DNA of 64,000 nt, from assembly GCA_900548225.1 (NCBI GenBank), contig URJM01000002.1, positions 4,848-68,847 of the forward strand, written 5' to 3'. Origin of the DNA: an uncultured bacterium (lineage in GTDB: Bacteria; Verrucomicrobiota; Lentisphaeria; Oligosphaerales; Oligosphaeraceae). Position numbers and translations under genes: made by a program. Numbering within the stretch: position 1 is the stretch's first letter; every line of letters starts with the position of its first letter. Under the pieces are notes generated by a model that was given only the letters and a program-made list of their open reading frames with translations, made no database searches and was not told where the DNA came from. This document shows positions 1-38,934 of this stretch, piece after piece.

Positions 1-752
1 AAATAGATTCTGTCGATTACGGGGAAGCCCTTCCTGCATGCCTTCTCGAAGTCCTGGAGCGCGTCCACGTCCGGGGTCTCCGGCAGGAATTTTTCGATGC
101 TCATGAGATTCTTGATGGCTGCGGGGAGATTTCCGCGTGCCATGGACCTGCGCCATGCGAGCGCTCCGCGCAGTGCGTCCGCCAGGGTTTTGCGTTCACT
201 GGCTTCGGCCTCGAGGTCCTTGACATCCAGCCTGATGTCGCCCACGTAGACGGAGTAGTCGGTCTTTGGCGAGGAGCAGAATATGTCGATGTACTCGATG
301 GCGCTCAGGTCGAAGTTGCTCATCTCGCCAATCTCCGCCTTGAGGGTGTGCCTGCCCTTTGACCGGACCGTGTCGAAGAAGTTGAATGTCTTCGGGTCGT
401 TCTTGGTTTTGACGACCAGTCCCACTGGCTCGTCGGTTTCGCAGTAGATGTCAATCAGGAGTGCGTTCACGAGGCGCCAGTCTGTGAGTGCGTCCGGCAC
501 CTTGTCGAGGTAGAGTTTTCCCGACGGCCACCACTCCTCGCCCGTCCGTGCATTTCCCTTGTATGTGAACTTGACCGTGAGTCCGGATTCGCCAGTTGGC
601 CATGGGCGCTGTTCCATCGTCAGGAATTCGTCGCCGTTTGTCCTCCAGGCATTTTCGGGCGGGTTGGCTGCGGAGTTGACATAGAGGTCGACCTCCTTTG
701 CAAGAAGCGACAGCGACAGCAGGATTCCGGCTAGCAGAAGAAATCTTTTCAT
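1..752 (-). CDS. hypothetical secreted protein (partial, C-terminus beyond window start)
   Basis: Minus-strand ORF starts at ATG (revcomp of cat at about 750-752) and stays open to position 1, at least 250 codons. N-terminus MKRFLLLAGILLSLSLLA looks like a signal peptide. Not in the ORF track because no stop lies inside the window. No recognisable domain. Confidence 0.5.
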   Translation of the reverse strand, partial: MKRFLLLAGILLSLSLLAKEVDLYVNSAANPPENAWRTNGDEFLTMEQRPWPTGESGLTVKFTYKGNARTGEEWWPSGKLYLDKVPDALTDWRLVNALLIDIYCETDEPVGLVVKTKNDPKTFNFFDTVRSKGRHTLKAEIGEMSNFDLSAIEYIDIFCSSPKTDYSVYVGDIRLDVKDLEAEASERKTLADALRGALAWRRSMARGNLPAAIKNLMSIEKFLPETPDVDALQDFEKACRKGFPVIDRIY

Positions 753-873
753 TGTCGTGGCAGGATATGGGTGAGTGGATGTGTTTGACACAGGCAAATT
801 GGGTGTTGCGTAATATACGCGCTGGCTTGGCGATTGGGGTTTTGGCATCCTTTCGCCGCGCGAAAAAAGGTGG

Positions 874-2133
874 CTATTCCCCCGCCAGGCAGTCGATGCG
901 TTTTTTTAGGGATTTGAGGGTCTTGTCGATTGTCGGGTAGTCTCTGTAGAGGAATCCCGCCTCCTGGAATGCGGGGGAGTTTTCGACGGCCGTTTCGATT
1001 TCCGCCCGTTTGAGGAGCGCGCGGTCGATTCCGACAACGAGTGGCGCGGCGGGGTGTGCGTCAAGCCAGGCGAGTCGTTCGGCAAGATCCCTCGAATGCC
1101 ATCTGTGGAAGAGCTCCAGGTGGATGATTCTACGGGAACCCTTCCTCCGGAAGGAGTAGTCCGGGAAGATCATCTCGCCTCCGCGCCCCTTGAGAAACGG
1201 AGCCTCCTCTACGATGCGCCATTCGGAGTCCGTTGCGAGAAAGTGGTTTCTGAAGAGGGCCACCTCCTCGGGAAGCACAGCGGAGAATTGGTGATATGGG
1301 CATTTGAGACGGGAATCCTGGTCGAGTTCCAGCTGGAAGAGCCGTCCCTTCCAGAGAATCTGCGCTTCCAGTCTCCACCATGGCATTGTGCAGACAGCGG
1401 GGAAGAACGTAGCCAGCGCGAGGCCGTAGCGCCGTCCCGTGTCCAGCACTGCGGCCGGTCCGTCGACCGTCATCTCCAGCCAGCGGAGCGCGCCGTCGCC
1501 GTCCTGGCCAGATTCCTCCGGGGAGTCCTTGATTTCCGCGAGGAGCTGGAAGAATCTGAGATATTGGCAGAGGCGTCGCAGCTGCGCCGCATCCCTTGCG
1601 CCGACCTTGACCTTCATCTCCCTGGCGGTGAGAAGCAGCGCCTGGACCTGCGCGAGGTTGTAGCGTTCCAGGAGCCCCCGCGCGTCAATGTCGTCGAATT
1701 TCAGCAGCCGGTCGTTTTCCGGCAGGTCGCCGTAGAGATTTCCAACAAGCGGGTTTTCGGGCAGCATTTCCCTGATGCGTTCTTCCCAGTGGCCGAATTG
1801 CGGCAGCGTGTCGTTGCCCCGCAGCAGCTGCGCGGATGCATCGAGAATCTCCTTCCGCAGGGTCTGGAAATCGAGCTGTGAACTTGAGGAGAAGTCAGTG
1901 CGGTCTTCGAGGAGCTTCACGATTCCGAGGCCAAGGCTCCTGCGCGTGGTCTCCGCCAGGACTGCCTTGACGTTTTCATCGAGCTGCCCGCGGCTTTCAC
2001 GCCGGTCCAGTGCGTTGTGGAAGAGTCCGATGAGCTGTTCGCAAAGCAGGAGGTTTTCCTGTGTGAATCCCACGAACCTCGGGAGGATGGAGTCCCTGCG
2101 GCAATATGGATGGACAAGTGCCTGGGTCAGCAT
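874..2133 (-). CDS. Bax1-like nuclease (DUF790-type partner of XPB helicase), 419 aa
   Basis: ATG at 2133 overlaps the stop of the upstream helicase gene by 7 nt, which suggests translational coupling. Size and position match archaeal/bacterial Bax1 (binds archaeal XPB). The family call rests mainly on context; no motif confirmation is possible by eye. Confidence 0.55.
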   Translation of the reverse strand: MLTQALVHPYCRRDSILPRFVGFTQENLLLCEQLIGLFHNALDRRESRGQLDENVKAVLAETTRRSLGLGIVKLLEDRTDFSSSSQLDFQTLRKEILDASAQLLRGNDTLPQFGHWEERIREMLPENPLVGNLYGDLPENDRLLKFDDIDARGLLERYNLAQVQALLLTAREMKVKVGARDAAQLRRLCQYLRFFQLLAEIKDSPEESGQDGDGALRWLEMTVDGPAAVLDTGRRYGLALATFFPAVCTMPWWRLEAQILWKGRLFQLELDQDSRLKCPYHQFSAVLPEEVALFRNHFLATDSEWRIVEEAPFLKGRGGEMIFPDYSFRRKGSRRIIHLELFHRWHSRDLAERLAWLDAHPAAPLVVGIDRALLKRAEIETAVENSPAFQEAGFLYRDYPTIDKTLKSLKKRIDCLAGE

Positions 2134-3536
2134 TCCTCGTGTGTCTCCATTGGGTTGCCGTATGCCGGGTGCATCCTGCGTCTTTCGGAGGTATATGTCT
2201 CACTTGTGCCGTCGCTGACGAGTTCGTAGAGCAGGGCGGTCTTGCCTGGCGAGGGTCGGAGAATCCTGCCCAGGCGCTGGACGTGCTCCCTGACGGAGCC
2301 GGAGCCCGACACGATGATGCCGATGTTCGCGGCGGGCACGTCAACCCCTTCGTTCAGCACCTTGCTGGTGACCAGGGCTGGATATGTGCCGTTGCGGAAG
2401 GCCTCCAGGAATGCTACGCGCTCGGCGGACTTCGTGTGGTGTGTAATCACCGGCAGCGCAAAGGCGTTGCCGAGGCGGTATGCCGCTGCGTTGTCCGCCG
2501 TGAATATGATGGTGCGGTCGTGGCGGTGCGCCTCCAGCAGTTCGGCCACGGTGCGGAACTTTGCGGTCGAGAATCGCGCGATGCGGCGTTGGTCCAGGTA
2601 GGCTTGCATTGCCTGGTGCCCCTCCGTGGTGCGGCTTGCCGCCCTCAGGAAGTTGCCCCAGCCCTGGGGCGTGCCAAGGCGGATGTTGTTCTTGCGCAGA
2701 AAGTCCACGTAGATTCCGTGGGCGCGGGAGTATTCCGCAACCTCGCCTTCGTCAAGGCTCGTGTAGATTGGCACGGTCTCGTATGGCGCCAGGACAGTCT
2801 CCCTGGACAGTTCGCCTATCTCCCTGCGGTAGCAGATACGCCCCACTAGCCTTTCGTATTCCCTGTCGAGTCCGTCGTCCCGTTCGGGTGTTGCGGTCAA
2901 TCCCAGTCGGAATGGCGCGATTGATCCGATGGCGATTTGCGAGTAGGACGGGCCGGGCAGATGGTGGCACTCGTCCACGACCAGCAGTCCGAAGCGGTTG
3001 CCGATGCGGTCGATTGTCAGCAGTGCCGAATCGTATGTCGAGACGGTGACATCCTGGATGTCCTGGGTGCCGCCGCCAAGTATTCCGATGGGTCGCCGGA
3101 AGGCGTTCCTGAGTTGCAGGACCCACTGGGCAAGCAAGTCCAGGGTCGGGACAATAACGAGGGTTGAGCGGTTCGTGCGTGCAATCGCCATCTGCGCCAG
3201 AAAGGACTTGCCTGTGCCAGTTGGAAGGACGACGATGCCGCGCCTGGCGGACTCCTCCCATCGGGCGATGGCCTCCGCCTGGTAGTCCCTTGGCGGGTGG
3301 CTGGAGAAGAGTTCCAGTCCCGGGGAGGTGTAGGCCCTTGCCTGGTCGTCGTAGGGGAAGTGCCCCCTGTGCAACGCCGCGATGATGGCGGAGTACGCGC
3401 TGGCCGCCGCCCGGAAGCACTGCACGCGCCTGTCATATCGGCAGAACTCCCCGATGCCGCAGGGCAGTTCTCCGGGAGTTCTGGCCTCGCCGTCGCCCAC
3501 GAGCAGCGTTCCTGACTGAAAGCGTATTGGAAGCAC
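2127..3536 (-). CDS. xpb: XPB/Ssl2-like superfamily-2 DNA helicase (DEAH-type)
   Basis: Motif I PTGTGKS, motif II DECHH, motif III LTATPERDD (resembles the XPB RED motif), motif VI QRLGRILR. An N-terminal extension of about 70 aa sits where XPB has its damage-recognition domain. GTG start at 3536, 28 nt after the kinase gene stop. Confidence 0.8.
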   Translation of the reverse strand: MLPIRFQSGTLLVGDGEARTPGELPCGIGEFCRYDRRVQCFRAAASAYSAIIAALHRGHFPYDDQARAYTSPGLELFSSHPPRDYQAEAIARWEESARRGIVVLPTGTGKSFLAQMAIARTNRSTLVIVPTLDLLAQWVLQLRNAFRRPIGILGGGTQDIQDVTVSTYDSALLTIDRIGNRFGLLVVDECHHLPGPSYSQIAIGSIAPFRLGLTATPERDDGLDREYERLVGRICYRREIGELSRETVLAPYETVPIYTSLDEGEVAEYSRAHGIYVDFLRKNNIRLGTPQGWGNFLRAASRTTEGHQAMQAYLDQRRIARFSTAKFRTVAELLEAHRHDRTIIFTADNAAAYRLGNAFALPVITHHTKSAERVAFLEAFRNGTYPALVTSKVLNEGVDVPAANIGIIVSGSGSVREHVQRLGRILRPSPGKTALLYELVSDGTSETYTSERRRMHPAYGNPMETHEEC

Positions 3537-3564
3537 GTGCGTGTGAAGTAGGGATTCGCGTCTG

Positions 3565-5808
3565 TCAGGCGACCGTCACATCGCTTTCAAGCAGCTTGAA
3601 TATTCTGGTGAGGGACTGGATGAATCCCAGGATCATCGTCTGCCCCTCCTCGCGCCTGCCTTCCCTGAAGGCCTCCATTATCGTGACGGTCTTTTCGGAG
3701 TGGTCCAGGAGTCCGATTGCGGCGAGCTGTCCCTTGAGGCGATGCAGCAGTGCGAGAGTCTCCTGTTCGTTGCCCTGCTGTGCATAGCTTCCCAGGTTGT
3801 CCAGGAGCGGCCTCCAGTCCGCAAGCGTCTGTGCCAGCAGCATTTTGATTTCGCCCAGGGAGAGCTGGTATTGTTCGCGCATGAAGTCGTGCATTCTCCT
3901 GACAGTCGCGACCTCGGGGGATTCAGCGAGTTCCCTGTCGGCGGCCCGCAGTTCGCGTTCTGGCGTGATGCCAAGCGCCTCCGCAATGCAGAGCAGAAGC
4001 TGGTCCCTTTCGAAGGGCTTCGGGATGAATCCCGTGGAGCCCGCACCGAGTGCCTTTTCGACATCCTCCTGGTATGCGGACGCTGTGAGCGCGATGATGG
4101 TGGTGGTGGCCGCGTCAGGCAGCTTGCGGATTTCCCTGATGGCCGTATAGCCGTCCATGATTGGCATCTGTATGTCCATGAATATCAGGTCGAAGTGCTG
4201 CTGCCGGCATAGGTCCAGCGCCTCCCGTCCGTTTTCGGCCGTGCGGTAGGGCAGTCCCACGGACTGGCAAATCGTCTCCAGCAGGAAGAGATTTGTCAGG
4301 GTGTCGTCCACCAGCAGCGCCCAGTGTTTTTTAAGTTCCGTGCGTGGGAGTTTGACATGGTAGAGGTCCGAGAGATGGACCTGTTCCTCAGGTTTTGAGG
4401 CGGCGCACTGCAGTGTGAAGTAGAAGCAGCTTCCTTCTCCGGGACTGCTCTTCACCTGGAGCCGTCCGCCCAGGAGTTCGACCAGTGAGTGGGAGATGGT
4501 GAGCCCCAGCCCCGTGCCGCCATATCGCCTGGCAATCGAGATGTCTGCCTGTTCGTATGGTTTGAAGAGGTGGTCCTGTTCGCTTTGGGTCATTCCGATT
4601 CCGGAGTCCCTGACTGCGAAGTCGATGGAGAGGCGTCCTCCATCCATGGGCGTGACCTGGATTTCCAGGGCGACCTCGCCGCGTTCGGTGAACTTGACGC
4701 CGTTGCCCAGGAGGTTGTCGAGAATTTGCCTCAGCAGCGACGGGTCGGTTCTCATGAGGACGGGCTCCTCCGTGCCGTGGAAGAGCAGATTCACCTTGAG
4801 GGGCTTGCCGCGTGCGGACTGGCGTGCCAGGGCGACGCGTTCCTCCGCAAAGGAGCGCAGGTCGAATGTCACCTCGGATGCGGTCAGCTTGCCGGCGCGG
4901 AGCTTTGTGAAGTCGAGGATTTCGTTGATGACATGCACAAGACCCTTTGCGCTGGAGTCGATGATCTTGAGATACTGGCGCTGCTGGTCGCTGAGCTGGG
5001 TCTCCTTCAGGCTTGAAAGGAAGCCAAGCAGGCCGTTCATGGGAGTCCGGATTTCGTGGGACATGGTCGCGATGAACTTTTCGCGGGACTGGGACTCCTT
5101 GCGTATGCGGCGCAGCAATTCGTCCATCCCCTCGGCAAAGGTCGGGTCTTCCGTTGCCGAGGGGTCGCGCCTGGCGTGCCGCGCCGGCTCCTCCAGGAGC
5201 TGTCCTACGGGCACGGAGAGATAGTTCCTGAGTGTCTGGAGCTGGCATTTCCGGCGTCTTGACAGGATGAAGAGCCAGTATCCCAGCAGTCCGAGCAATG
5301 GAAGCGGCCATATCCAGCAGAAGATGGCATACGCCATGATTCTCCGGCCTATGGCGTCGTTGGTCTTGCGGATGATATCGTCCGCCTCGCCAATGCACCG
5401 GGAGAGTTCCTCCAGGGGGCGTGAGATGTCCCTGCTTTCCGCAATCGCCTTCAGCTGGCCGCCGACCATGCCGTGGATGTCGTAGAGTCGAAGGATGTCG
5501 GCGCGGTCGGAGGCGTCCGGCATCATCATCAGCATCCTGAGGCGTGTGTCCTGCCTCTCCTGCTCCGCATGCAGCGCCCTCTGGGCATGGTCGCGCTTCT
5601 CCGCCCGCCCGGCCCGCTGGGCCTCGAATATGCTCTGCGAAAGAATGAGTTCCTGATGCCAGGAGCCCCCGACCTCGCTCAATATCGATGAAATCCTCCC
5701 TGAAGCGGAAAGACGGCTGCGCAGGAGGATGCCAATGACGACCGACAGCAGCACGTACGCCGCGACCCCCAGCAGGATGGAGAGTTGTCTTCGTGTGAGG
5801 TTGGGCAT
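3565..5808 (-). CDS. tripartite hybrid sensor histidine kinase (HisKA-HATPase-REC-Hpt), two TM segments
   Basis: H-box MSHEIRTPMNG. HATPase G-boxes DSGIGM and GGTGLGL. Receiver DLIFMDIQMPIMDG with conserved D and K. C-terminal Hpt motif HRLKGQ. Two N-terminal hydrophobic segments flank a periplasmic region of about 130 aa. Confidence 0.9.
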   Translation of the reverse strand: MPNLTRRQLSILLGVAAYVLLSVVIGILLRSRLSASGRISSILSEVGGSWHQELILSQSIFEAQRAGRAEKRDHAQRALHAEQERQDTRLRMLMMMPDASDRADILRLYDIHGMVGGQLKAIAESRDISRPLEELSRCIGEADDIIRKTNDAIGRRIMAYAIFCWIWPLPLLGLLGYWLFILSRRRKCQLQTLRNYLSVPVGQLLEEPARHARRDPSATEDPTFAEGMDELLRRIRKESQSREKFIATMSHEIRTPMNGLLGFLSSLKETQLSDQQRQYLKIIDSSAKGLVHVINEILDFTKLRAGKLTASEVTFDLRSFAEERVALARQSARGKPLKVNLLFHGTEEPVLMRTDPSLLRQILDNLLGNGVKFTERGEVALEIQVTPMDGGRLSIDFAVRDSGIGMTQSEQDHLFKPYEQADISIARRYGGTGLGLTISHSLVELLGGRLQVKSSPGEGSCFYFTLQCAASKPEEQVHLSDLYHVKLPRTELKKHWALLVDDTLTNLFLLETICQSVGLPYRTAENGREALDLCRQQHFDLIFMDIQMPIMDGYTAIREIRKLPDAATTTIIALTASAYQEDVEKALGAGSTGFIPKPFERDQLLLCIAEALGITPERELRAADRELAESPEVATVRRMHDFMREQYQLSLGEIKMLLAQTLADWRPLLDNLGSYAQQGNEQETLALLHRLKGQLAAIGLLDHSEKTVTIMEAFREGRREEGQTMILGFIQSLTRIFKLLESDVTVA

Positions 5809-5847
5809 CTGGAGTGGGGCGTCTGCCTGGAGAAATGGTTGCGCGTG

Positions 5848-7641
5848 TCAGGAGTTGTGGACGGACTCCATGAAGTCGTCGAGGATGCGTTGCGCCTGTT
5901 CGGCCGTGTCCACGTCGCAGACCTGCTGGTACAGGTCGCGGCAGTCTTCGAGGCGCACTCTCCTGGCAAGTTCCCTGATGTGGGGCACAGCGGCAGGGTT
6001 CATTGAAAATTTGCGCAGGCCGGCGCCTATCAACACCGGCAACGCCGACATGTTGCCACCCATCTCGCCGCAAATCTCCAGCTCCTTGTCGGGATACTTG
6101 GACATGATGCGGCAGACGTCGCCAATGAGCCTGATGACAACCGGATGGCACTGCTGGTACCACTGCTTGACACGGGCGTTGCCACGGTCTACGGCGAAGA
6201 GGTACTGCACAAGGTCGTTGGTGCCGATGCTGACAAAGTCCACCTCCGGGAGGAGGCGCTCCAGGGTCAACGCGGCACTGGGCACCTCGAGCATCATCCC
6301 GATGGGGGGATTCCCGTATTCAATTCCATCCTTCCTCAGGGACTCCTGTGCGTCCCTGACCATCGCCTTGATGCGTATGATGTCGCTCATGTCGGAAATC
6401 ATCGGGAAGAGAAGTCGGACATTCCTGGCGACGCACACCCTCAGGATTGCACGGAGGTGCGTCCTGGCAAAGTCTGGGTTGGTGAGGAGGAAACGGAGAC
6501 CGCGCCATCCAAGTGAGGGGTTCAGTTCGTCGTCCCACTGGATGTAGGGCAGGGGCTTGTCGCCTCCGATGTCCAGGGCGCGGATTACGACGGGGGCTCC
6601 TTCCGCGCCGCCTACAAGTCGTTGGAGGACACGGTGTTGTGTCTCTTCATCAGGCATATTGTTCCGTATCAGGAACATGAATTCGGTGCGGTAGAGCCCG
6701 ATTTCGCGTATGCCTGCGCTGTGCAGCGCCGGGATTTCGCTGAAGAGGGTGATGTTTCCGCAGAGGCTGATCGTGGTGCCGTCGAGGGTCTTCGGCGAGT
6801 CGTCCACGGGCGCGTCCTGGGACTGTCCGCCCGTCGCCTGGCGGCTCCTTCTGCTGATGTTCAGGGCGAGCTGGTACTGCTTCAGCACCCCTGCGTTGGG
6901 ATTGATGTAGCAAATGCCGGCGCGGCAGTCGACGAGCAGCTTGTCCTGGACTGTCACCTGCTCCTGTATCTCCGAGACGCCAATCATCATCGGAATCCTC
7001 AGGGCGCGGGCAATGATGGCGACATGGCTCGTCGCACCCCCCGTGTCACACACAATGCCGCAGACACGCTTCAGCGGAGCAGCCAGGAACTGTGACGGGA
7101 AGAGCTCGCGGGCAACCAATATTATCGGGGTGCAGGAGTCCGGCGAGTCGACTGTCGGAACGCCCGTCGAGTCGGTGTTCCGTATTTCGTCCATGATTCT
7201 CATCAGGACATCCTGCACATCCAGAAGCCTTTCGCGCAGGTATCTGTCATTGATGTGGAGGAATTCGTCCTGGAATGACCTGGAGGCCAGTACCAGGGCG
7301 GATGGGAGCGTCAGGTGGTCGTCGAGGTATTTGACGATTCTTTCCTGGAGGGTCGGGTCGTCCAGGAGGCTCTCATACATTTGGAAGAGCCCTTCGTCCG
7401 CCTCGGAAAGTAAATCCTTGACTTGCCGGGAAGCCGCTTCGATTGAGGCGCGGGCGCTTTCGATGGCTGCCTTGAGGAGTCGCTTCTCCCCCTCGACGTC
7501 CTCGGTCCTGACAAGCTTCACGTCCTTCAGCGCGTCATCGCTGGAAAGAACCAGGCATCTGCCATAGCAGACGCCTGGGACAATCGGCGTGCCTGTCTTG
7601 AAGAGCACGTCCTTCCTGGCATCGGGTCTAGTCTTGGTCAT
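5848..7641 (-). CDS. ptsI: phosphoenolpyruvate-protein phosphotransferase (PTS enzyme I)
   Basis: PEP-utilising mobile domain GGATSHVAIIARAL and a TIM-barrel PEP-binding domain. Start moved to the internal ATG (MTKTRPD...) at 7641, because the track start at 7779 runs into rnpB. No N-terminal GAF domain. Confidence 0.9.
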   Translation of the reverse strand: MTKTRPDARKDVLFKTGTPIVPGVCYGRCLVLSSDDALKDVKLVRTEDVEGEKRLLKAAIESARASIEAASRQVKDLLSEADEGLFQMYESLLDDPTLQERIVKYLDDHLTLPSALVLASRSFQDEFLHINDRYLRERLLDVQDVLMRIMDEIRNTDSTGVPTVDSPDSCTPIILVARELFPSQFLAAPLKRVCGIVCDTGGATSHVAIIARALRIPMMIGVSEIQEQVTVQDKLLVDCRAGICYINPNAGVLKQYQLALNISRRSRQATGGQSQDAPVDDSPKTLDGTTISLCGNITLFSEIPALHSAGIREIGLYRTEFMFLIRNNMPDEETQHRVLQRLVGGAEGAPVVIRALDIGGDKPLPYIQWDDELNPSLGWRGLRFLLTNPDFARTHLRAILRVCVARNVRLLFPMISDMSDIIRIKAMVRDAQESLRKDGIEYGNPPIGMMLEVPSAALTLERLLPEVDFVSIGTNDLVQYLFAVDRGNARVKQWYQQCHPVVIRLIGDVCRIMSKYPDKELEICGEMGGNMSALPVLIGAGLRKFSMNPAAVPHIRELARRVRLEDCRDLYQQVCDVDTAEQAQRILDDFMESVHNS

Positions 7642-7704
7642 GCCTTCTGCGGATGCTTGTGAATGCTGGAATGACACCCCCGGGGCAATTCTCCCGCCCC
7701 TGGG

Positions 7705-8090
7705 GAAAGATGTGTGTGGACAGATGACTGTAAGCCAGATTCTGTGCACCGCCCCTAGAGGCGGCCGGCGACCATTCATCTAACGCGACCGATACCCGAA
7801 ACTGTGCTTGCGCATGGCGCGGGCCGCGCCTCGTTTCCTATTTGGTCTTGCACCAGAAGGGGCTTGCCGAGCCGACAGCCCTTGCGAGCTGCCGCGGTGG
7901 GCTCTTACCCCGCCTTTTTCACCCTTGCCGACACAAAATGGCCGGCGGTCTCTTCTCTGTTGCGCTATCCTGACCGCGGGTTCACCCCGCGATACCCGAT
8001 CTTTCAACCGGGCTTCCTGCCCTGTGGTGTCTGGACTTTCCTCCCCGAAATAATCGGAGCGGCCGCCCGTCTCCGTCCACACTCGGTTAA
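7705..8090 (-). ncRNA. rnpB: RNase P RNA, bacterial type A
   Basis: Minus strand carries the P4 hallmarks GGAGGAAAGUCCAGAC...ACAGGGCAGG (5' side) and ACAGAAUCUGGCUUACAG (3' side), plus internal GCAACAGAGAAG and GGUAAGAGCCCACCG blocks that match the E. coli M1 RNA layout. The ends (P1) are estimated to within about 15 nt. Confidence 0.85.
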
Positions 8091-8158
8091 TATAACCTGA
8101 CAGCGAAGAGGCGAAGCCCCCCTCCGGTAGCGAAGAAAGACCCCGACGCCAGAGCTCT

Positions 8159-8510
8159 GAACCACGAATGGAACCACGAAATACAGGAGTGGAACCACGA
8201 AAAACACGAAAGGCACGAAAAAAGAAAGCAGGGGGGAGAGTATGAACCACGAATGGACACGAATGGACACGAATGGACACGAATGGAACCACGAAATACA
8301 GGAGTGGAACCACGAAAAACACGAAAGGCGCGAAAAAAGAAGGGAGGGGGGAGAGTATGAACCACGAATGGACACGAATGGAACCACGAAATACAGGAGC
8401 GGAACCACGAAAAACACGAAATACACGAAAAAAGAAAGAAACCCGTAGTCGGGGCGGTATATGAACCACGGATGCACACGAATAATCGTAGTCGGGGCAA
8501 ATTCCCAATA
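8159..8510. repeat. tandem repeat array: about 3.5 units of 85-114 bp, each beginning gaaccacgaatgg and containing a variable-copy 10-bp microsatellite acacgaatgg (1, 4 and 2 copies)
   Basis: Read directly from the sequence. Units end in a purine-rich run (gggggagagtat). The same family recurs at 35030-35295. Confidence 0.85.
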
Positions 8511-8599: not shown

Positions 8600-8676
8600 T
8601 GGTGTGCGATGCAGGACTCGGACCAGCGACCTCTACCGTGTCAGGGTAGCGCTCTAACCAACTGAGCTAATCGCAC
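8600..8676 (-). tRNA. tRNA-Val (anticodon GAC)
   Basis: Minus-strand cloverleaf: GTGCGAT acceptor, TAGCTCAGTTGGTTAGAGC D-arm, anticodon loop CTGACAC, encoded CCA. The T-arm has one U-U mismatch and an unusual T-loop TCCGAGT (C at position 55). Confidence 0.7.
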
Positions 8677-8738: not shown

Positions 8739-10115
8739 CTATTCCGAAGATTTCTTCTTCAGGGGAGCAGGGATGGTCGGTGCGGCCAGCTGTTCGGGGA
8801 CGTAGATTGCGAAGAGGAGCTCGTGGATGAAGCCGAGCATGAAGAGGCGTGCCTCAATCGAGGTCTGCACCTCGGCGAAGCTGTCCTTCACCTCTTCCCA
8901 GAATCCCTTCATGTCCCCCTTCTCGACCTCAAGCGTGCTGGATGCGGCAATGCGCTGGATAAGTTCGCCCTCCTTCTTCTGGAGACGGCTCCAGAATTGG
9001 GGGAGCGTTCCCTCGATGGTCAGCGACAGGTTCTCCTCGTAGTTGAGGCGCTTCAGCATGCTGTTGAAGTTTTTGCGCAGGGTAGGCGAGAGCTTCAGCT
9101 GGGAGCCCAGCTTCGCCCAGTCGATGCGCGAAAGGAGGAGGTCGACGAACTTCTTGGATTCGTCAAGCTTCTTGATGGCGGCGTCGCGCTCCGCATTGCT
9201 CTTGCCGGCGCGGGCCTCGGTGTTGGCCGCGTCATTCTGAATCTGGCGGTTTGCCTGGAGCTGCTCCTGGAACTTGTTCTGCCAGCCGTTCAGTTCCTCC
9301 TTGAGGCGGGACAGCTCGGCCTGAAGGCGGGTGGTGACCCGCTCGGCATTCTCGCTGGCAGTGGCGGCACGCTTCTCCAATTCCTCGGAACGGGAGGAAA
9401 GAAGGCCGCTCAGGCGCTTCACCTCCGCCGAAGAGGAGAGGAACTTCTGGTTCAAGGCTTCAAGGTCGCCCTTCTGGGTGCGGATCTGATGACGGGCTTC
9501 CTTGAGCTCGTTCTCGGCGCTCTGCTGCTGCTGGCGTGCCTTCTCAAGCTCGCCGGAAGCGCTGGAGGCCTTGCGGTCAGCCTCGGAAAGACGCGCCTCT
9601 AGCTCCTTGATGCGCTCAAGAAGCTCCTCGGAACCCTCCTGGTGGTTCAAAATCTGGTCAGCCTGCTCCTTCGTGAACTTCAGGGGGGCAAAGACAAGCA
9701 GAATCTTCCAGGCCTTCAAGTCCGAAACCTGGAAGAACTCCCTGAACTTGTCGTCGGAGAGGACGTAGTCCACGTCGTTGAGCTTGTTCTCCTTGCGGTA
9801 CTCCTTGTATTCGTCGGAGTTGAAGTATCCCTCAAGCTTTGCGTGAAGCTCGGCGTGGACGGGATACCACGCAGCAAAGAGCGCACTGCAGGTGGAGTCG
9901 CTGTAGTCGGTCTTCACAGCCTCGTTGATGACCTGCTTGGTCAGCCTCGGACGCTGCTGGGGATCAATCCTGTGACCGCCAAATGTGCAGACCTTCAAAA
10001 GCTGAGCGTTGCCGGAGATGTACTGGCTGAGGGTGCGCCAGGGAAGCTCCGACAGCATCTGAGAAAACATGTCAGGAATGCTGACGCCTTGGATTTTTTC
10101 GTTGTTTCCCAGCAT
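8739..10115 (-). CDS. hypothetical protein with a central coiled-coil of about 150 aa (458 aa)
   Basis: Strong RBS AAGGAG 8 nt upstream of the ATG at 10115. The central region is heptad-rich and E/K/Q/L-rich. No recognisable motif. The antisense ORF 8682-9602 is rejected as a low-complexity G/A/L mirror. Confidence 0.7.
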   Translation of the reverse strand: MLGNNEKIQGVSIPDMFSQMLSELPWRTLSQYISGNAQLLKVCTFGGHRIDPQQRPRLTKQVINEAVKTDYSDSTCSALFAAWYPVHAELHAKLEGYFNSDEYKEYRKENKLNDVDYVLSDDKFREFFQVSDLKAWKILLVFAPLKFTKEQADQILNHQEGSEELLERIKELEARLSEADRKASSASGELEKARQQQQSAENELKEARHQIRTQKGDLEALNQKFLSSSAEVKRLSGLLSSRSEELEKRAATASENAERVTTRLQAELSRLKEELNGWQNKFQEQLQANRQIQNDAANTEARAGKSNAERDAAIKKLDESKKFVDLLLSRIDWAKLGSQLKLSPTLRKNFNSMLKRLNYEENLSLTIEGTLPQFWSRLQKKEGELIQRIAASSTLEVEKGDMKGFWEEVKDSFAEVQTSIEARLFMLGFIHELLFAIYVPEQLAAPTIPAPLKKKSSE

Positions 10116-10496: not shown

Positions 10497-10897
10497 ATCT
10501 TGAAGTGGTTTGCCGGTGCGCGGGGAAAATGCGCCTCAGGCTGAAAAACAGGGGGGAGTCTCTATATATTCCGTCTTCGGAAAAGTGAGGCCGAACTGGG
10601 TTTGGCGGAGGAATAAGACGGCTGTGGAGCTGGATATTGGAAGGCCGGCCGTGACGTCAGGAAATCTCCTGGACACAGCCGGCCAGAGCTTCGAGCCGTA
10701 CTCGATTGGTGGAAAATCTGGAGGCGCGAATCGGATTCGGACCGATGAATAAAGGTTTTGCAGACCTTCGCCTTACCACTTGGCTATCGCGCCGTCGAAA
10801 GCGTGCTTAATGTAAACACCTTTCCTCACTTTGCAAGAGCCCCGCGTAAAAACACGCCAACAGAACGGCGCGCCACCCTGCGGCACGGGCCTCGCGG

Positions 10898-12517
10898 CTA
10901 CCTGAACACCTTCATCCCCTCGGGCGCCAGTACCACGGGCTTGTCCCCCCTCCGGGCGATGACTGTCACCTCCCCCATTGGAGTTGGGCATACGGCGGTG
11001 GCGTAGTCCAGGTCGCAGAGGTTCGGGGCGACCTTGACTCCCCCGCTGTATCCGTCTCCAACCGGGGTGATTCCCGTGATTGTCTCGACAAGCCATGCCA
11101 TTGGTGATGCGCCCCATCCGTGGCAGAGGCTGTTTCGGAGTCCCTGGAAGCATCCTGCTCCCGACTCCAGGTGGATGTCGCGTCTGCCCCTGCGGGGCAT
11201 TTCGTCGATTCTGCCCGCCCCCTTTGCCCATTCCAGGTCGAACTGCTCCCAGATTGTGCGGCTGCCCAGCTCCAGCATTCCGCCGTAGTACTCCCTCAGC
11301 AGGTCAAGGGCTTCCTGGGTCTTGCCGGCCATGGTGTAGACCTTGAGGTAGTTGTCAAAGTGGAAGGTGGACAGTTCACTCCTGGGGTTGACGGAGAGGA
11401 CGCGCCTGAAGACGTCGCGGGGCTTCTCAAGTCCCGTCAACGCCGCCCAGGCCGCCGCGGACTTGGGGCGCGAGGACTTGACATGCCGTCTGGCGACCTC
11501 GCGGGCGACCCTCCTGGCGTCGGCGAGGATCTTCGCCTCCCCAAACAGCTCCGCCAGTTCGCCGCATGCCTGGACGGCCGCCAGGTACAGGGGGCCATAG
11601 CTGTCGGCGGGAGTCCGCTCCACGGCTCCCCAGTCCACAATCTCGCCGTGCATGACGGAGTCGGGGTCGTTGTCGAAGGAGTCGAGGAGAAGCTTCGAGA
11701 AGAAGACAAAGGGCTTCCTCTGGCTCCTCAGGAACTTGTCGTCGGCGAAGAACCTGTGGTATTCCCTCTGGGAAAGGAACCAATATGCGGTATAGGAGGG
11801 AATCCCGTTGAAGTATTTGTTGACAAGCGCCTCCTCGTTCAGGAACTCGAGGCTCTCGGGAATCGCGCTGTGCCTTCTGTAGAGGACGCCGCATGCGCGG
11901 ATTTCATTGTAGAGGTCCCCCATCCAGACAAGGCGGTCGCGCTTGGTCCCGTCGAGCAACAATGGCGAAATGCATTTGTTCAGGGTGGTGAAGCACGCCT
12001 CGTATATTGCGTTGAGACGCTCGTCGCTGCATTCGAAGAAGCCTACGCGCTTCGCGGGATGCGTCCACGCCTCCGCGGAAATCTCGCGCAGGTTCAGGGT
12101 TGCCTTTTCGTCCAGGTTGTCAAGGCGGAGAAACCTGAACCCAGTATTGCCCACTCGCCCAATCCCCATTGCGGAAAGGGGAAGCACGATGTCATGCATG
12201 GAATGGTCGTTGTTCGGGGTGTTGACGACCTCGCTCACGGATTCGCCAAAACGTATCCTTGCATTCACGGGACCGGCCCCGTCACGCCCGCGGGAAATCC
12301 GGACGCCCTGCAAGGGCTCGACCGTGTCGTATTCGAGAATCACGGAGCCGCCGGGAGGAATCTGGGCGCCAGGGGCACGCCAAATCGTCGCAGTCTCCCC
12401 TGCGACATCCTTCAGGCGCTCGGCTCCGCGAACCCCGGAGCTCTTCCAGACCACCCGGGTGGGGGCAAGATAGGAGACAGAACGCTTTTCACGGTAGACG
12501 GCGGGGGAATTGGGCAT
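10898..12517 (-). CDS. six-hairpin (alpha/alpha)6 glycoside hydrolase, GH78 alpha-L-rhamnosidase-like catalytic domain
   Basis: Motif RDRLVWMGD resembles the GH78 hallmark R-x-R-x-G-W-x-GD. At 539 aa it is shorter than typical multi-domain GH78 enzymes. Family assignment is tentative. Confidence 0.55.
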   Translation of the reverse strand: MPNSPAVYREKRSVSYLAPTRVVWKSSGVRGAERLKDVAGETATIWRAPGAQIPPGGSVILEYDTVEPLQGVRISRGRDGAGPVNARIRFGESVSEVVNTPNNDHSMHDIVLPLSAMGIGRVGNTGFRFLRLDNLDEKATLNLREISAEAWTHPAKRVGFFECSDERLNAIYEACFTTLNKCISPLLLDGTKRDRLVWMGDLYNEIRACGVLYRRHSAIPESLEFLNEEALVNKYFNGIPSYTAYWFLSQREYHRFFADDKFLRSQRKPFVFFSKLLLDSFDNDPDSVMHGEIVDWGAVERTPADSYGPLYLAAVQACGELAELFGEAKILADARRVAREVARRHVKSSRPKSAAAWAALTGLEKPRDVFRRVLSVNPRSELSTFHFDNYLKVYTMAGKTQEALDLLREYYGGMLELGSRTIWEQFDLEWAKGAGRIDEMPRRGRRDIHLESGAGCFQGLRNSLCHGWGASPMAWLVETITGITPVGDGYSGGVKVAPNLCDLDYATAVCPTPMGEVTVIARRGDKPVVLAPEGMKVFR

Positions 12518-12550
12518 GGTGGTGTGGGGATTGGAAAGGGGGATTGCCAG

Positions 12551-12612
12551 AGACGACGGATTAGTATACTTGCCTCCACCGGAGACGACGGATTAATATA
12601 CTTGCCTCCACC
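12551..12612. promoter_or_regulatory. two tandem 30-bp direct repeats (agacgacggatta[g/a]tatacttgcctccacc, period 32 bp) in the divergent promoter region between the GH78-like gene and abiEi
   Basis: Seen directly in the sequence, one mismatch between copies. Candidate operator. Confidence 0.4.
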
Positions 12613-12641
12613 CTGGACTATTACGCCATGCCCCGATGTGC

Positions 12642-12666
12642 AACCCTTCCAGCTAGAATCTTTGCA
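12642..12666. repeat. 25-bp direct repeat copy 1 (aacccttccagctagaatctttgc)
   Basis: Identical copy at 13903-13927. Together they bracket a 1.26-kb segment that carries abiEi. Confidence 0.75.
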
Positions 12667-12755
12667 AACCATTCTTTTTGAGAAAGCGAGTTGCAGAGCG
12701 TTGAGCTGTCATTATATTGATGTCAAAACAATCCCCAAAAGGGGAATAAATTGAC

Positions 12756-13286
12756 ATGAAACTCTACGACAATATCAATGCCACGGCACTTTCCAACTAT
12801 GGCCTGATCACATCCTCCCAGGCCACGGCACTTGGCGTGCGCCTCAAGGACCTGCTTGAATGGGTGAAAATCGGTCGTCTGGAGAAATGCTGGCGTGGAG
12901 TTTACCGCCTTGTGCATTATCTGCCGACGGAGTACGACCGCTATGCAGAGGCCTTGGCGACAGTTGGAGAAGATTCGATGATATGGGGGGAAAGCGTTCT
13001 CGCCATGCACAATCTTGCCATGGTGAATCCCGACAAAATTGAAGTCGCCACGACACGCCGTGTGCGCAGGGAACTGCCCACTTGGATAGGTCTTGTAAGG
13101 CTTCGAGAAGAACCTCTGCATGATGCCTTCAACGGCATCCGCTGCCAGCCTCTGGCGGAATCCTTCAGGCATTGCAAGGGAAAGGTCATGAACCAACGCC
13201 TCGCGGAGGCAGTTGTCGAAGCGGAACAAAGAGGTCTTCTCGGCATCACCGAGGCCTGTGCATTGAAAAAAGAGTTTCCATTATGA
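12756..13286 (+). CDS. AbiEi-family antitoxin/transcriptional regulator-like protein (AbiEi_4 N-terminal domain)
   Basis: N-terminal pattern ...GLITSSQATALGVRLKDLLEWVKIGRLEKCWRGVYRL matches the AbiEi wHTH consensus (...G.IT..QA..LG.....L..LV..G.L.....GVY.L). Confidence 0.6.
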   Translation: MKLYDNINATALSNYGLITSSQATALGVRLKDLLEWVKIGRLEKCWRGVYRLVHYLPTEYDRYAEALATVGEDSMIWGESVLAMHNLAMVNPDKIEVATTRRVRRELPTWIGLVRLREEPLHDAFNGIRCQPLAESFRHCKGKVMNQRLAEAVVEAEQRGLLGITEACALKKEFPL

Positions 13287-22372: not shown

Positions 22373-25213
22373 TTATTGGGATAGTGAGGCAGCCAGGAAC
22401 TGCCCCGTGTAGGATTTCTTGCACTTGGCGACCTGCTCGGGGGTGCCCTCCGCGACAAGGGTGCCGCCCTGGTCGCCACCCTCGGGCCCCAGGTCGATTA
22501 TCCAGTCGGCGGTCTTGATTACGTCGAGGTTGTGCTCGATGACAATGATCGAGTTGCCCTGGTCGCGGAGTGATTCGAGGACTTTCAGGAGCTGTGCGAT
22601 GTCGGAGACATGGAGCCCCGTGGTGGGTTCGTCAAGCAGGTAGAGAGTGTGCCCCTGCGCCCTGCGGGAAAGCTCTGTCGCCAGCTTGACCCTCTGGGCT
22701 TCGCCGCCGGAAAGGGTGGTCGCCGGCTGCCCAAGATGGATGTAGCCCAAACCAACGTCCCGCAAGGTCTCAAGCTTGCGCATGATCCTGGGCATGGATG
22801 CGAAGAACTCGCACGCCTCGTTCACGGACATGGCGAGGACGTCAGCTATGGAACGCCCCTTGAAACGGACGTTCAGGGTCTCGGTGTTGTAGCGGAGCCC
22901 ATGGCACTGCTCGCAGGGGACGTAGACGTCCGGCAGGAACTGCATCTCAATCTTCTTGATGCCGTCCCCCTTGCACTCCTCGCAGCGCCCGCCCTTGATG
23001 TTGAAGGAGAAACGCCCCGGCGTATAGCCGCGAAGCTTGGCGTCGTTGGTCATGGCGAAGACCTCGCGGATGAGGTCGAAGAGCCCGGTGTAGGTGGCTG
23101 GGTTGGACCTGGGGGTCTTGCCGATGGGACCCTGGTCGATGACTATCATCTTGTCAATCTTGTCAATGCCCTCGATCTTCCTGCAGGCCCCGGGTACGTC
23201 GTCCTTTATCCCGAAGTGCTTGTTCAGGGCAGGGCGTATGATGTGGTTGACAAGGGTGGACTTGCCAGATCCGGAGACGCCTGTCACGCAGCAGAGCAGG
23301 CCCAGCGGAATCTTGACGTTCAGGTTCTTGAGATTGTGTTCGGTGGCGCCCTTGACGGTCAGGAAGCCGCCGCTGCCGCGGTTGCGCCTCTTCGGGACGG
23401 GAATCGAGCGGCGCCCGGCCAGGTAGTCCCCCGTGACGCTGCCGGGGGTGGCGGCCACTTCGTCCGGCGTCCCCTGTGCGACGAGGTATCCTCCGTTGCG
23501 TCCTGCGCCGGGCCCCAGGTCGATGAGGTGGTCTGCGGCGCGCATGGTGTCCAGGTCGTGTTCCACGACAATCACGGTGTTTCCGAGGTCCCGCAGGCTC
23601 TTCATCGAGGCGAGGAGCCTGTCGTTGTCCCTCTGGTGGAGTCCGATGGAGGGTTCGTCAAGGATATAGAGGACTCCCACGAGTCCCGAGCCGATTTGGC
23701 TTGCGAGCCGTATGCGTTGCGATTCTCCTCCGGAGAGTGTTCCGCTTTCCCGGTTGAGCGTGAGGTAGTTGAGTCCGACTGTCCTGAGGAAGCCGAGCCT
23801 GTTTCTGATTTCCTTGAGGAGTTCGGCGCCGATCTTCTGCTGGTGGTCTGTGAGCTTCAGGTTGTCCAGGAACTCCAGCGCGCCGTCAATCGAGAGTGCG
23901 CAGAACTGGCTGATGTTGAGGCCGCCCAGGGTCACGGCCAGATATTCGGGCTTGAGGCGCTCGCCATGGCACAGGCTGCACTCCTCGTAAACCGAGACCG
24001 CCTCCAGGCGGGCGCGCAACTCCTCGTTGTCGGTCTCGCGGAGACGCCTCTCCAGGTTCGGGATGATTCCCTCGAAGGGTTTGCGCCACTCGTGGATCTT
24101 CCCCTTCTGCCAGTAGTCGAAGGTGACAACACGGTCGCCAGAACCATAAAGCAGCATCTTGCGGATCTCCGCCGGAAGCTTCTGCCAGGCAGTCGTCAGG
24201 GAGAAGCCGAATTGCTCCGAAAGACACCGCAGGTAGTGGTTGTAGAGGAGGACGACAAAGCGGGGGCCCCGGCGCCACAGGGGAATCGCACCCCTGCGTA
24301 TGGAAAGGGTCGGGTCGGGAATGACCCCCTCCTCGGTGAAGGTGAGGTGCTTGCCAAGCCCGTCGCATCCAGGACACGCGCCAAAGGGGGAGTTGAAGGA
24401 GAAGTTCCTGGGTGCCAGCTCGCCAAAGGAGACTCCGCAGTCAACGCAGGCAAGGCTCTCGCTCATGCGCTCCTCGTGCCAGCCGCCAGCCTCCTCGGGG
24501 GACTCCAGCAGGACCACCAGGACACCATTGCCGCGCTTCAGGGCAAGCTCCACGGAGTCGTTGAGACGGCCAGGCTCCAAGGACCCCGTCACAAGACGGT
24601 CCACCACGGCTTCGATGGAGTGGCGCAGGGTCTTCCCCAGCGAAATCTTGTCGTCAAGGGAGACAAGCGCCCCGTCAATCCTCGCACGGACAAATCCGTC
24701 GCGCCGCATCTGGTCAAGCACTTCCACGTGCTCGCCCTTCTTGCCGTGGACGTATGGCGCGAGGATCATCATCTTCCTGCCACCGGGATACTTCATGATT
24801 TGCCGGCAGATGCTCTCCGCATTCTGGGATGAGATCTCCTTTCCGCACTTCGGGCAGTGGGGCACCCCGAGGTGGGTGTATAGCAGGCGAAGGTAGTCGT
24901 AGATTTCGGTGGTGGTCGCCACAATCGACCTGGGCGAGGAACCCGCCACGCGCTGCTCGATGGCAATCGCCGGCGAAAGCCCGCTTATGTGTTCGACCTG
25001 GGGCTTTGCCAATCTGTCAAGGAATTGCCGTGCATACGCGGAAAGGCTCTCCACATAGCGGCGCTGCCCCTCGGCATACAGGGTGTCAAAGGCCAACGAA
25101 GATTTGCCACTGCCGCTGGGACCCGTGATGACCACGAGCTTGTTGCGCGGAATCGACAGTGTCAGATTCTTCAGGTTGTGCTGGCTGGCGCCCTGGATGA
25201 CTATGGAGTCCAT
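22373..25213 (-). CDS. uvrA: excinuclease ABC subunit A
   Basis: Two ABC ATPase modules (GPSGSGKSSLAF and GVSGSGKSTLV), zinc-finger Cys pairs, 946 aa. Confidence 0.95.
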   Translation of the reverse strand: MDSIVIQGASQHNLKNLTLSIPRNKLVVITGPSGSGKSSLAFDTLYAEGQRRYVESLSAYARQFLDRLAKPQVEHISGLSPAIAIEQRVAGSSPRSIVATTTEIYDYLRLLYTHLGVPHCPKCGKEISSQNAESICRQIMKYPGGRKMMILAPYVHGKKGEHVEVLDQMRRDGFVRARIDGALVSLDDKISLGKTLRHSIEAVVDRLVTGSLEPGRLNDSVELALKRGNGVLVVLLESPEEAGGWHEERMSESLACVDCGVSFGELAPRNFSFNSPFGACPGCDGLGKHLTFTEEGVIPDPTLSIRRGAIPLWRRGPRFVVLLYNHYLRCLSEQFGFSLTTAWQKLPAEIRKMLLYGSGDRVVTFDYWQKGKIHEWRKPFEGIIPNLERRLRETDNEELRARLEAVSVYEECSLCHGERLKPEYLAVTLGGLNISQFCALSIDGALEFLDNLKLTDHQQKIGAELLKEIRNRLGFLRTVGLNYLTLNRESGTLSGGESQRIRLASQIGSGLVGVLYILDEPSIGLHQRDNDRLLASMKSLRDLGNTVIVVEHDLDTMRAADHLIDLGPGAGRNGGYLVAQGTPDEVAATPGSVTGDYLAGRRSIPVPKRRNRGSGGFLTVKGATEHNLKNLNVKIPLGLLCCVTGVSGSGKSTLVNHIIRPALNKHFGIKDDVPGACRKIEGIDKIDKMIVIDQGPIGKTPRSNPATYTGLFDLIREVFAMTNDAKLRGYTPGRFSFNIKGGRCEECKGDGIKKIEMQFLPDVYVPCEQCHGLRYNTETLNVRFKGRSIADVLAMSVNEACEFFASMPRIMRKLETLRDVGLGYIHLGQPATTLSGGEAQRVKLATELSRRAQGHTLYLLDEPTTGLHVSDIAQLLKVLESLRDQGNSIIVIEHNLDVIKTADWIIDLGPEGGDQGGTLVAEGTPEQVAKCKKSYTGQFLAASLSQ

Positions 25214-38768: not shown

Positions 38769-38934
38769 CTCCAACAACCGAATCAAGAAGCATAAAACAG
38801 GTGAAATTTTCCTTCCGTCCGCTATATTGGAAGGCTTACATGAATTCGTTTCCCTGCGCGTGGGTTGCAGGGGTTCACTCCTTTCATATCACATAAGAAA
38901 ACGACTCCTTCATCAAAGAGGTATCCATAGCAAG

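Follow-up and report, generated by a model that had tools for sequence, protein, structure and literature searches.

The closest described relative of the locus reported here is the XPB-Bax1 complex of archaea, a helicase-nuclease pair that has been characterised both biochemically and structurally. In the archaeal complexes the thumb-like (ThM) insertion of XPB is the docking surface for Bax1, and a patch in the N-terminal part of Bax1 provides the XPB interface together with a second, 'n5' nuclease site. Reviews published from 2020 to 2026 still describe the in vivo role of XPB-Bax1 as 'elusive'. On the bacterial side, surveys of PD-(D/E)xK nucleases from 2005 and 2012 placed COG3372/DUF790, the family of the Bax1-like nuclease discussed below, in Cyanobacteria, Deinococci and one actinobacterium, usually adjoining COG1061/SSL2 helicases or ResIII and helicase domains. 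The 2012 paper on Mycobacterium tuberculosis XPB reported that no XPB-Bax1-like complex had been identified in bacteria, and according to Balasingham et al. the XPB of the M. tuberculosis type lacks both the damage-recognition domain (DRD) and the ThM. Here we describe an XPB-Bax1 gene pair in a stretch of 64,000 nucleotides (the window) from contig URJM01000002.1 of an uncultured Oligosphaeraceae bacterium. The identification of the locus as an XPB-Bax1 module in a gut-type Lentisphaerota bacterium is solid, and we put at roughly 0.75 the probability that it forms a two-gene helicase-nuclease module orthologous in architecture to archaeal XPB-Bax1.

The list of open reading frames (ORFs) contains two that follow one another on the minus strand and share their junction:

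2127..3536, minus strand: XPB helicase gene of archaeal type, 469 aa, GTG start, with DRD, HD1, RED, ThM and HD2
874..2133, minus strand: Bax1/DUF790 nuclease gene, 419 aa, ATG start, assigned by Pfam, by profile comparison, and by AlphaFold2 (AF2) and Foldseek
2127..2133, minus strand: 7-nt overlap ATGCTGA read from the sequence, with the Bax1 start codon lying within the last codons and the stop of XPB

The initial annotation had described overlapping genes for proteins of 469 and 419 aa, and the ORFs and their 7-nt junction were found exactly as claimed. The coding strand across the junction is ...GAG GAA TGC TGA and contains the ATG of the downstream gene; the overlap suggests translational coupling of XPB and Bax1. 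The same -7 junction occurs at seven orthologous loci, the other orthologues having overlaps of 1, 23 or 35 nt or short gaps. In the annotations of other assemblies the helicase start is called 12 codons later, which yields a protein of 457 aa. We have kept the 469-aa reading because the N-terminal strand 'L-R-F-Q-S-G-T-L-L' is preserved in orthologues, several of them ATG-started, and because the Pfam XPB_DRD match already starts at residue 4; the earlier start is thus supported. The G+C content at third codon positions (GC3) is 0.79 and 0.75 for the pair, compared with 0.76-0.82 in the adjacent genes. A scan of positions 600-8200 for promoters and terminators returned no more sites than shuffled controls.

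The helicase carries the Pfam families XPB_DRD, ResIII, ERCC3_RAD25_C and Helicase_C. Its elements lie as follows:

3339..3527, minus strand: DRD, residues 4-66 (Pfam PF18458), present in orthologues
3204..3224, minus strand: motif I (Walker A) PTGTGKS, residues 105-111; PTG[TAS]GK[ST] in all full-length orthologues
2961..2975, minus strand: motif II DECHH, residues 188-192; DECHH in 60/64 non-gapped orthologue sequences
2871..2897, minus strand: motif III with RED variant TATPERDDG, residues 214-222; the same string in S. tokodaii XPB2 (StXPB2)
2562..2789, minus strand: ThM insertion, residues ~250-325, by alignment to A. fulgidus XPB (AfXPB), with approximate boundaries
2256..2279, minus strand: motif VI QRLGRILR, residues 420-427; identical in 62/66 extracted orthologue sequences

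The XPB_DRD match (41.6 bits, cut-off 26) covers profile positions 1-57 of 57 and coincides with the N-terminal extension of about 70 aa that the initial annotation had placed where XPB has its damage-recognition domain. Motifs I, II, III and VI are likewise all present as had been read from the sequence, and the RED-like ERDD is the StXPB2 string, AfXPB having TATFEREDG. Across the bacterial orthologues the element reads ER-x-DG, with A, P, T, S, D or Q at x; the R and the final D alone are constant, so that the middle Glu of the RED motif is not conserved in the bacterial clade. The ThM region is collinear with those of AfXPB and StXPB2 in a sequence alignment that needs a single 1-residue indel.

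Against sequences in the Protein Data Bank (PDB) the helicase scored 335.7 bits with AfXPB (2FWR/6P66_A; residues 32-456 to 44-465) and 292 bits with StXPB2, and reached 74-80 bits with human and yeast XPB over the C-terminal half only. The non-XPB superfamily 2 (SF2) proteins RadD, UvrB and a type I R subunit scored 53, ~42 and ~30 bits, respectively. The helicase therefore groups with XPB, as had been proposed, and not with Res or other SF2 families (335.7 and 292 bits versus at most 53). Identity to AfXPB is 43% over 421 positions, and XPBs of other bacterial phyla are 43-49% identical. The NCBIfam model NF045503 'repair_heli_XPB' gave 181.8 bits in two stretches, which is below its equivalog cut-off of 610 bits; with 548 positions, this model appears from its length to describe the longer M. 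tuberculosis type. Because that cut-off is missed and the M. tuberculosis type has neither DRD nor ThM, we class the helicase, by its sequence, as an archaeal-type XPB and not as the bacterial XPB that has been characterised in M. tuberculosis.

The nature of the downstream protein had been set as one of two points on which the assignment could fail. Pfam DUF790 (PF05626) matches it with 192.7 bits (cut-off 28.8) over profile positions 1-361 of 387, and a profile built from 32 bacterial homologues retrieves PfBax1 (8GY8), AfBax1 (6P66_B) and StBax1 with 205, 173.6 and ~164 bits in alignments that span nearly the full length. With E-values of 1e-56 for DUF790 and 3.5e-99 for the helicase against AfXPB, chance matches are ruled out. 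An AF2 model computed from the same 32-homologue alignment (pLDDT 90.5, pTM 0.82) was compared with the PDB by Foldseek; the top eight matches were all Bax1 chains (E 1.7e-21 to 3.4e-19, TM 0.51-0.67) and the next one had an E-value of 8e-3, so that Bax1 chains alone are matched significantly and the proposed Bax1-like partner is upheld. Sequence identity to the solved archaeal Bax1 proteins is 18-20%. The regions that could be mapped are:

1054..1287, minus strand: C-terminal PD-(D/E)xK (VRR-Nuc-like) domain, residues ~283-360, by alignment to AfBax1
1159-1164, minus strand: P324-D325 in the nuclease domain
1114-1116, minus strand: E340 in the nuclease domain
1657..1734, minus strand: N-terminal patch Y134, D136, P138, E139, N140 ... 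Y158, N159, which maps to AfBax1

DuPrez et al. identified AfBax1 D305 (equivalent to SsBax1 D301, which is essential for cleavage) and E318 as nuclease residues. These align with D325 and E340, and P324, D325 and E340 are invariant in 85/85 extracted orthologues; as far as the alignment can tell, the nuclease site should be intact at both positions. In the N-terminal patch, AfBax1 Y131, D133, Y155 and N156 correspond to Y134, D136, Y158 and N159, and AfBax1 E135 aligns to P138 with E139 adjacent. Conservation among the orthologues is high here too (D136 85/85, P138 84/85, Y158 84/85, N159 79/85), and mutation of the equivalent residues of Thermoplasma acidophilum TaBax1, Y128, D130, Y152 and N153, cripples the enzyme. 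StBax1 R86, which is part of a salt bridge to StXPB E357/E360, corresponds to R93, present in 84/85 sequences.

The nearest DUF790 homologues are all found in metagenome-assembled genomes (MAGs) of Lentisphaerota (Victivallales, Oligosphaeraceae, Lentisphaeria), and one identical DUF790 protein is present in ENA metagenome assemblies. A single Bax1 protein used as the query gave no match in the scan of the genome collection; a tight alignment of 13 sequences, scanned against species-representative genomes, gave 79 loci. These include, within Lentisphaerota, the cultured Oligosphaera ethanolica DSM 24202 and Victivallis vadensis, and outside it Acidobacteriota (Pyrinomonadaceae, Blastocatellia), Cyanobacteria (Leptolyngbya and relatives), Magnetococcales, Latescibacterota and KSB1. 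An exhaustive profile search (E <= 1e-3) returned 3,386 representatives of 50%-identity clusters, and DUF790 is therefore a family of medium size.

Conservation of the pair in other genomes, which the initial annotation had named as a check, was assessed by tblastn and ORF extraction at the 77 bacterial loci whose upstream sequence extends for 1.4 kb or more. At 63 of these, DUF790 is immediately preceded by a same-strand XPB gene, distributed as follows:

Lentisphaerota: 34/39
Acidobacteriota: 25/25
Cyanobacteria: 0/8
others: 4/5

When the flanking ORFs of ~85 loci were clustered, XPB and DUF790 were the only families common across phyla and no third component shared across phyla emerged from these clusters; the unit is therefore a module of two genes. 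In the Lentisphaeria MAG Horse_feces191 (JAKSPA010000005.1; L010:3404-6055) neither the stop codon of the helicase nor the start codon of DUF790 is there, and a single in-frame ORF of 883 aa runs through XPB_DRD, helicase and DUF790. This is either a natural fusion or an indel in the MAG; as a 'Rosetta-stone' fusion it supports a physical partnership, its source being a MAG. The rarity implied at the outset has to be revised: the pair is present as described, but dozens of Lentisphaerota and Acidobacteriota species genomes carry it. In view of the 2005 and 2012 reports and of the RefSeq annotations of Deinococcus described below, the pair in the window is an addition at the level of the lineage to a kind of locus already known, not a new kind.

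DUF790 stands without an adjacent XPB at five loci of Victivallis and its relatives, in one Verrucomicrobiota MAG and at eight cyanobacterial loci, where the catalytic residues are intact and the neighbours are ordinary metabolic genes. At five of the eight cyanobacterial loci, a divergent Endonuclease_NS (non-specific DNA/RNA endonuclease) gene lies directly upstream. The search of representative proteins also yielded a protein of 981 aa (P0169) in which DUF790 is followed by a C-terminal RecQ-type helicase (DEAD, Helicase_C, RecQ_Zn_bind); from this fusion it follows that a Bax1-like nuclease can pair with a helicase other than XPB. A 446-aa ORF downstream of XPB in an ENA assembly (ERZ1311564, NODE_12786) joins the N-terminal half of DUF790 (87% identical to the protein of the window) to a RecQ zinc-binding domain. 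We rejected it as a true fusion, as at 1.76x coverage it is most likely a chimeric assembly. Two contigs titled 'Anaerovoracaceae bacterium' (CAVGTF010000012.1) and 'Bacteroidaceae bacterium' (CAVFEH010000008.1) carry histidine kinase-XPB-DUF790 loci that are 48-68% identical to those of Lentisphaerota and have the same gene order; these bins are probably mislabelled or contaminated.

No match to DUF790 was found in 50,697 phage records. The family does occur on plasmids, namely on large replicons of Deinococcus (12 records) and of haloarchaea, and 40 of the 42 plasmid matches are on non-mobilizable secondary replicons. RefSeq annotates the genes on these plasmids as an overlapping 'DEAD/DEAH box helicase family protein' and 'DUF790 family protein'. 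The surroundings of the Deinococcus pairs vary: on plasmid P1 of D. gobiensis (NC_017805.1, L089:4501-8260) the pair is preceded, at 55 nt, by a co-oriented gene of the spore-photoproduct-lyase family, type I restriction-modification (R-M) S and M genes lie ~1 kb from the pair in D. psychrotolerans, the pair of D. wulumuqiensis has TnpB on one side and a transposase on the other, with a nuclease-helicase gene as neighbour, and metabolic genes surround it in strain KNUC1210. A link of the photoproduct lyase to the pair was rejected, the gene being absent from three other Deinococcus loci examined.

We propose the following mechanism by analogy with the archaeal complexes. XPB and Bax1 would form a 1:1 heterodimer through the N-terminal domain of Bax1 and the ThM and HD2 of XPB. 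XPB would engage a junction of duplex and single strand, such as a bubble or fork, and pry it open by ATP-driven translocation. The nuclease domain of Bax1, with D325 and E340, would thus be placed so as to cleave one of the single-stranded arms close to the junction. Candidate substrates are stalled forks, R-loops, transcription bubbles or particular lesions. As to the biological role, we lean, with no great confidence, towards an accessory helicase-nuclease that processes branched or bubble DNA without UvrABC, and not towards a second general pathway of nucleotide excision repair (NER).

Several observations weigh against this interpretation. Complex formation, polarity and cleavage specificity are extrapolated from archaeal proteins to which the Bax1 protein is only 18-20% identical, and we found no experimental study of a bacterial XPB-Bax1 pair in the literature. 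The archaeal Bax1 enzymes do not all choose the same strand, and XPB stimulates some of them but inhibits others, so that their details cannot safely be carried over. Within the nuclease domain, it is ambiguous which residue corresponds to Af E275, the first of the acidic residues; the candidates E289 and E290 are kept in Lentisphaerota only and are offset in the alignment. The NCBIfam equivalog cut-offs are missed by XPB and Bax1 alike, the latter scoring 71.3 and 64 bits against a cut-off of 500 with NF053694 and NF053695, narrow models that bear the names of A. fulgidus and S. tokodaii. The invariance of XPB E372-R373 was discounted as evidence of a contact with Bax1, as an 'ER' at this position is generic among SF2 helicases. 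In addition, the loci of Victivallis, of the verrucomicrobial MAG and of the eight cyanobacteria without an adjacent XPB mean that the DUF790 nuclease is not strictly dependent on XPB, and in Deinococcus the pair is carried by accessory megaplasmids, in some cases with R-M or transposon genes close by.

The initial annotation had left the choice between repair machinery and a defence-like module, and of these the accessory repair role is the one we favour; defence lacks a defence-island context and copies in phages. In an anti-phage or anti-plasmid module, an XPB-like motor would translocate on foreign DNA and Bax1 would cleave it. The resemblance of the helicase core to PbeA (PADLOC, 175.7 bits, residues 79-440) and to the Dnd-associated restriction enzyme TIGR04095 (134.8 bits) would suit such a module, but DUF790 matches no PADLOC model and the PbeA similarity is limited to the helicase core. 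A restriction helicase of the type III Res, PbeA or Dnd kind was rejected on these grounds, only the generic core being matched and partner genes being absent. Defence could also account for the patchy distribution with loss of XPB in some lineages, for the megaplasmid location in Deinococcus and haloarchaea, with one copy close to type I S and M genes and another between TnpB and a transposase, and for the archaeal knockouts without a repair phenotype; Kinch et al. (2005) left a 'selfish character' possible. However, in none of the phyla is the pair accompanied by a conserved methylase or other component for telling self from non-self, the phage records hold zero copies, and nearly all of the plasmid matches are on non-mobilizable replicons. 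In the window and its relatives the pair occupies a syntenic chromosomal site among housekeeping and carbohydrate genes and has native codon usage, and the sole defence-like gene of the window is an orphan AbiEi ~9 kb away, past the RNase P RNA and a tRNA. We therefore regard an anti-phage or anti-plasmid function as unlikely and its case in this window as weak; elsewhere in the family it may yet apply. The broader proposal, in which the module is an unrecognised non-repair defence system of archaea and bacteria that is here under a hybrid histidine kinase, is to our minds similarly doubtful; if true, it would explain both the silent archaeal repair knockouts and the megaplasmid location.

The initial annotation also held that the organism carries both NER styles. 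It does encode both UvrA and XPB-Bax1, but a second NER pathway overreaches, since NER by XPB-Bax1 has not been demonstrated in vivo in any organism. A genuine eukaryal- or archaeal-style pathway acting beside UvrABC on bulky or ultraviolet lesions could draw on the ability of archaeal XPB-Bax1 to open and cut bubbles in vitro in an XPB-XPG-like manner, on the presence of the DRD and of the RED and ThM elements implicated in damage-site engagement, and on the photoproduct-lyase-family neighbour in D. gobiensis, a neighbour missing from the three other Deinococcus loci. Halobacterium NRC-1 has both systems, yet its uvrA, uvrB and uvrC are each essential for dark repair, and the mutants lose all dark repair of cyclobutane pyrimidine dimers and 6-4 photoproducts (PMC1590041). 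Deletions of xpb1, xpb2 and bax1 in S. islandicus had no observed phenotype (PMC4471258), deletion of xpb in T. kodakarensis had a marginal one, and no gene for XPD, XPF or a damage sensor is linked to the pair in the ~85 clustered loci. Such a parallel pathway thus seems quite improbable, and the content of the genome is better put as UvrA plus an XPB-Bax1 module than as two styles of NER. That the pair is a decaying or functionless relic of horizontal transfer from archaea is barely credible. AfXPB is as similar to the helicase as are bacterial XPBs of other phyla, which fits a past transfer between domains, and the failure to reach the NCBIfam equivalog cut-offs points the same way; but both ORFs are intact, the AF2 model is confident and GC3 is native, dozens of species share all ATPase motifs and nuclease residues without variation, and the pair with its overlapping junction is maintained across Lentisphaerota families and Acidobacteriota. 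The helicase-nuclease module thus remains our preferred reading.

The module belongs to a minus-strand run in which the RNase P RNA is succeeded by ptsP, a hybrid histidine kinase, XPB and Bax1; a gene for a GH123-like secreted protein comes next. The gaps are 39 nt between ptsP and the kinase and 28 nt between the kinase and XPB, before the 7-nt overlap. Two genes of this context concern the module:

3565..5808, minus strand: hybrid histidine kinase (HisKA-HATPase_c-REC by Pfam), directly upstream of XPB
22373..25213, minus strand: canonical uvrA (NCBIfam NF001503), outside the module and 18.8 kb from the helicase

The kinase, XPB and Bax1 genes are probably co-transcribed; the scan described above placed no promoter or terminator site between them. 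In the closest Lentisphaerota genomes (sixteen loci besides that of the window) the kinase, 62-73% identical, lies upstream of XPB by 9-70 nt; tblastn detected it at fourteen listed loci and others, and the clustering of flanks at 13. By the same two approaches it is absent near XPB in more distant Lentisphaerota and in all other phyla. Upstream of the kinase the flank varies, with ptsP and rnpB in the window and a 180-aa ORF elsewhere, and the GH123-like flank downstream is also syntenic in relatives. The kinase was rejected as a functional partner for these reasons: it accompanies the pair in one Lentisphaerota subclade only, and the GH123 flank is equally syntenic. Its adjacency may simply reflect gene order that was inherited, an explanation that suffices. 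In the Lentisphaerota lineage the pair is in all probability a native, non-mobile chromosomal gene pair that has been inherited vertically, with housekeeping and carbohydrate genes as its neighbours.

As the initial annotation had supposed, the window fits a bacterial chromosome, with the RNase P RNA, four tRNAs, RF3, EF-G and ptsP within it, and the canonical uvrA reported at 19 kb is indeed there. UvrA, of the canonical class I, exceeds the NF001503 equivalog cut-off (1419.5 bits, cut-off 1147) and has the Pfam domains UvrA_inter and UvrA_DNA-bind, and with them the domain that interacts with UvrB; the 64-kb window contains neither uvrB nor uvrC.

Further observations concern the remainder of the window. 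The RNase P RNA is of class A (7714-8078, minus strand, 192.8 bits) and overlaps the 5' end of the longest ptsP ORF (5848-7779), on account of which ptsP probably begins further downstream, perhaps at a Met near 7641. Between this RNA and a tRNA (8603-8676, minus strand) lies a tandem repeat (8163-8416; unit of 115 nt, 2.2 copies, 91% matches) with CACGAA(T/A)GGAACCACGAA-like subunits, which accounts for spurious ORFs of low GC3 at 7780-8508. Positions 8739-10115 (minus strand) encode a predicted coiled-coil protein of 458 aa and high GC3, which has no Pfam family and shows weak coiled-coil similarity to SMC, JetC or Rad50 (E 1e-4 to 1e-7). Beside another tRNA (10722-10793, minus strand), a patch of low G+C content (11120-13800; 0.557) encodes a 544-aa ORF without a family match and the AbiEi antitoxin (12756-13286; PADLOC 142 bits), which is not followed by an AbiEii toxin ORF; the patch looks like a decayed mobile or toxin-antitoxin remnant. 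On the plus strand at 40294-44859 and 37680-40230, ORFs of 1521, 467 and 362 aa with native GC3 have no Pfam match at E <= 1e-4.

The in vivo function of XPB-Bax1 is a question that has stood for more than 15 years, and deletions in archaea show almost no effect. Among mesophilic bacteria with UvrABC, such as Lentisphaerota, Acidobacteriota and Deinococcus, the module is common and well preserved, and at least one carrier, Oligosphaera ethanolica DSM 24202, is in culture. These bacteria offer easier hosts in which to study its role with canonical NER present, and the XPB-Bax1 fusion, the DUF790-RecQ fusion and the lineages with an XPB-less DUF790 provide handles for comparison. The picture of the family is unchanged by this locus, and we consider the find solid but incremental.

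Set beside the eukaryotic system of XPB in TFIIH and XPG, the window module shares a homologous C-terminal half of the helicase and, in concept, the division of labour between a translocase that opens a bubble and a structure-specific nuclease that cuts the junction. It has no TFIIH, p52/p8, XPD or XPA, and the nucleases have unrelated folds, XPG belonging to the FEN-1 family whereas Bax1 is PD-(D/E)xK/VRR-Nuc-like. With VRR-Nuc and FAN1-type nucleases the catalytic acidic residues on the same core are in common, as described for AfBax1 and the VRR-Nuc of phage SETP3; Bax1 differs by a large N-terminal XPB-binding domain and a Cas2-like domain, and the canonical Lys two residues past the Glu is absent (E340-L-F in the window). 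Likeness to PbeA, to TIGR04095 (dnd_restrict_1) and to type III Res (Pfam ResIII 98.7 bits) lies in the ResIII/SF2 core. Model positions 1 to ~250 of PbeA are left unmatched by the helicase, the TIGR04095 score is far under the cut-off of 600, no PbeBCD, dnd, ssp or Mod genes are nearby in the window, and none of the partners Mod, PbeB-D or dnd occurs in the ~85 related loci. Since both DRD and ThM are present, the helicase is an XPB proper rather than a restriction helicase.

The M. tuberculosis XPB (Rv0861c; NF045503) is likewise an SF2 XPB core in a bacterium, a member of the 3'->5' helicase family outside TFIIH. It differs in its eukaryote-like N-terminal domain, in having neither DRD nor ThM and in the absence of a Bax1 partner. 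From the archaeal XPB-Bax1 systems (6P66; 6P4F/6P4O/6P4W; 8GY8) the locus is set apart by its host, a mesophilic Lentisphaerota bacterium that also has UvrA, and by two features of the nuclease. The first acidic motif is shifted or ambiguous, and the catalytic Glu is followed by E-L-F-H-R-W-H in the window, in contrast to E-I-(A/V)-G-F-W in the solved archaeal Bax1 proteins and E-(I/L/V)-x-G-(F/Y)-W-(T/R) in Acidobacteriota and Cyanobacteria. The two systems agree in several other respects: the helicase keeps the domain order DRD-HD1-RED-ThM-HD2, the genes are adjacent and co-oriented with the helicase first, and the partner has the fold and length class of Bax1, its nuclease D/E pair and its N-terminal Y/D/Y/N patch.

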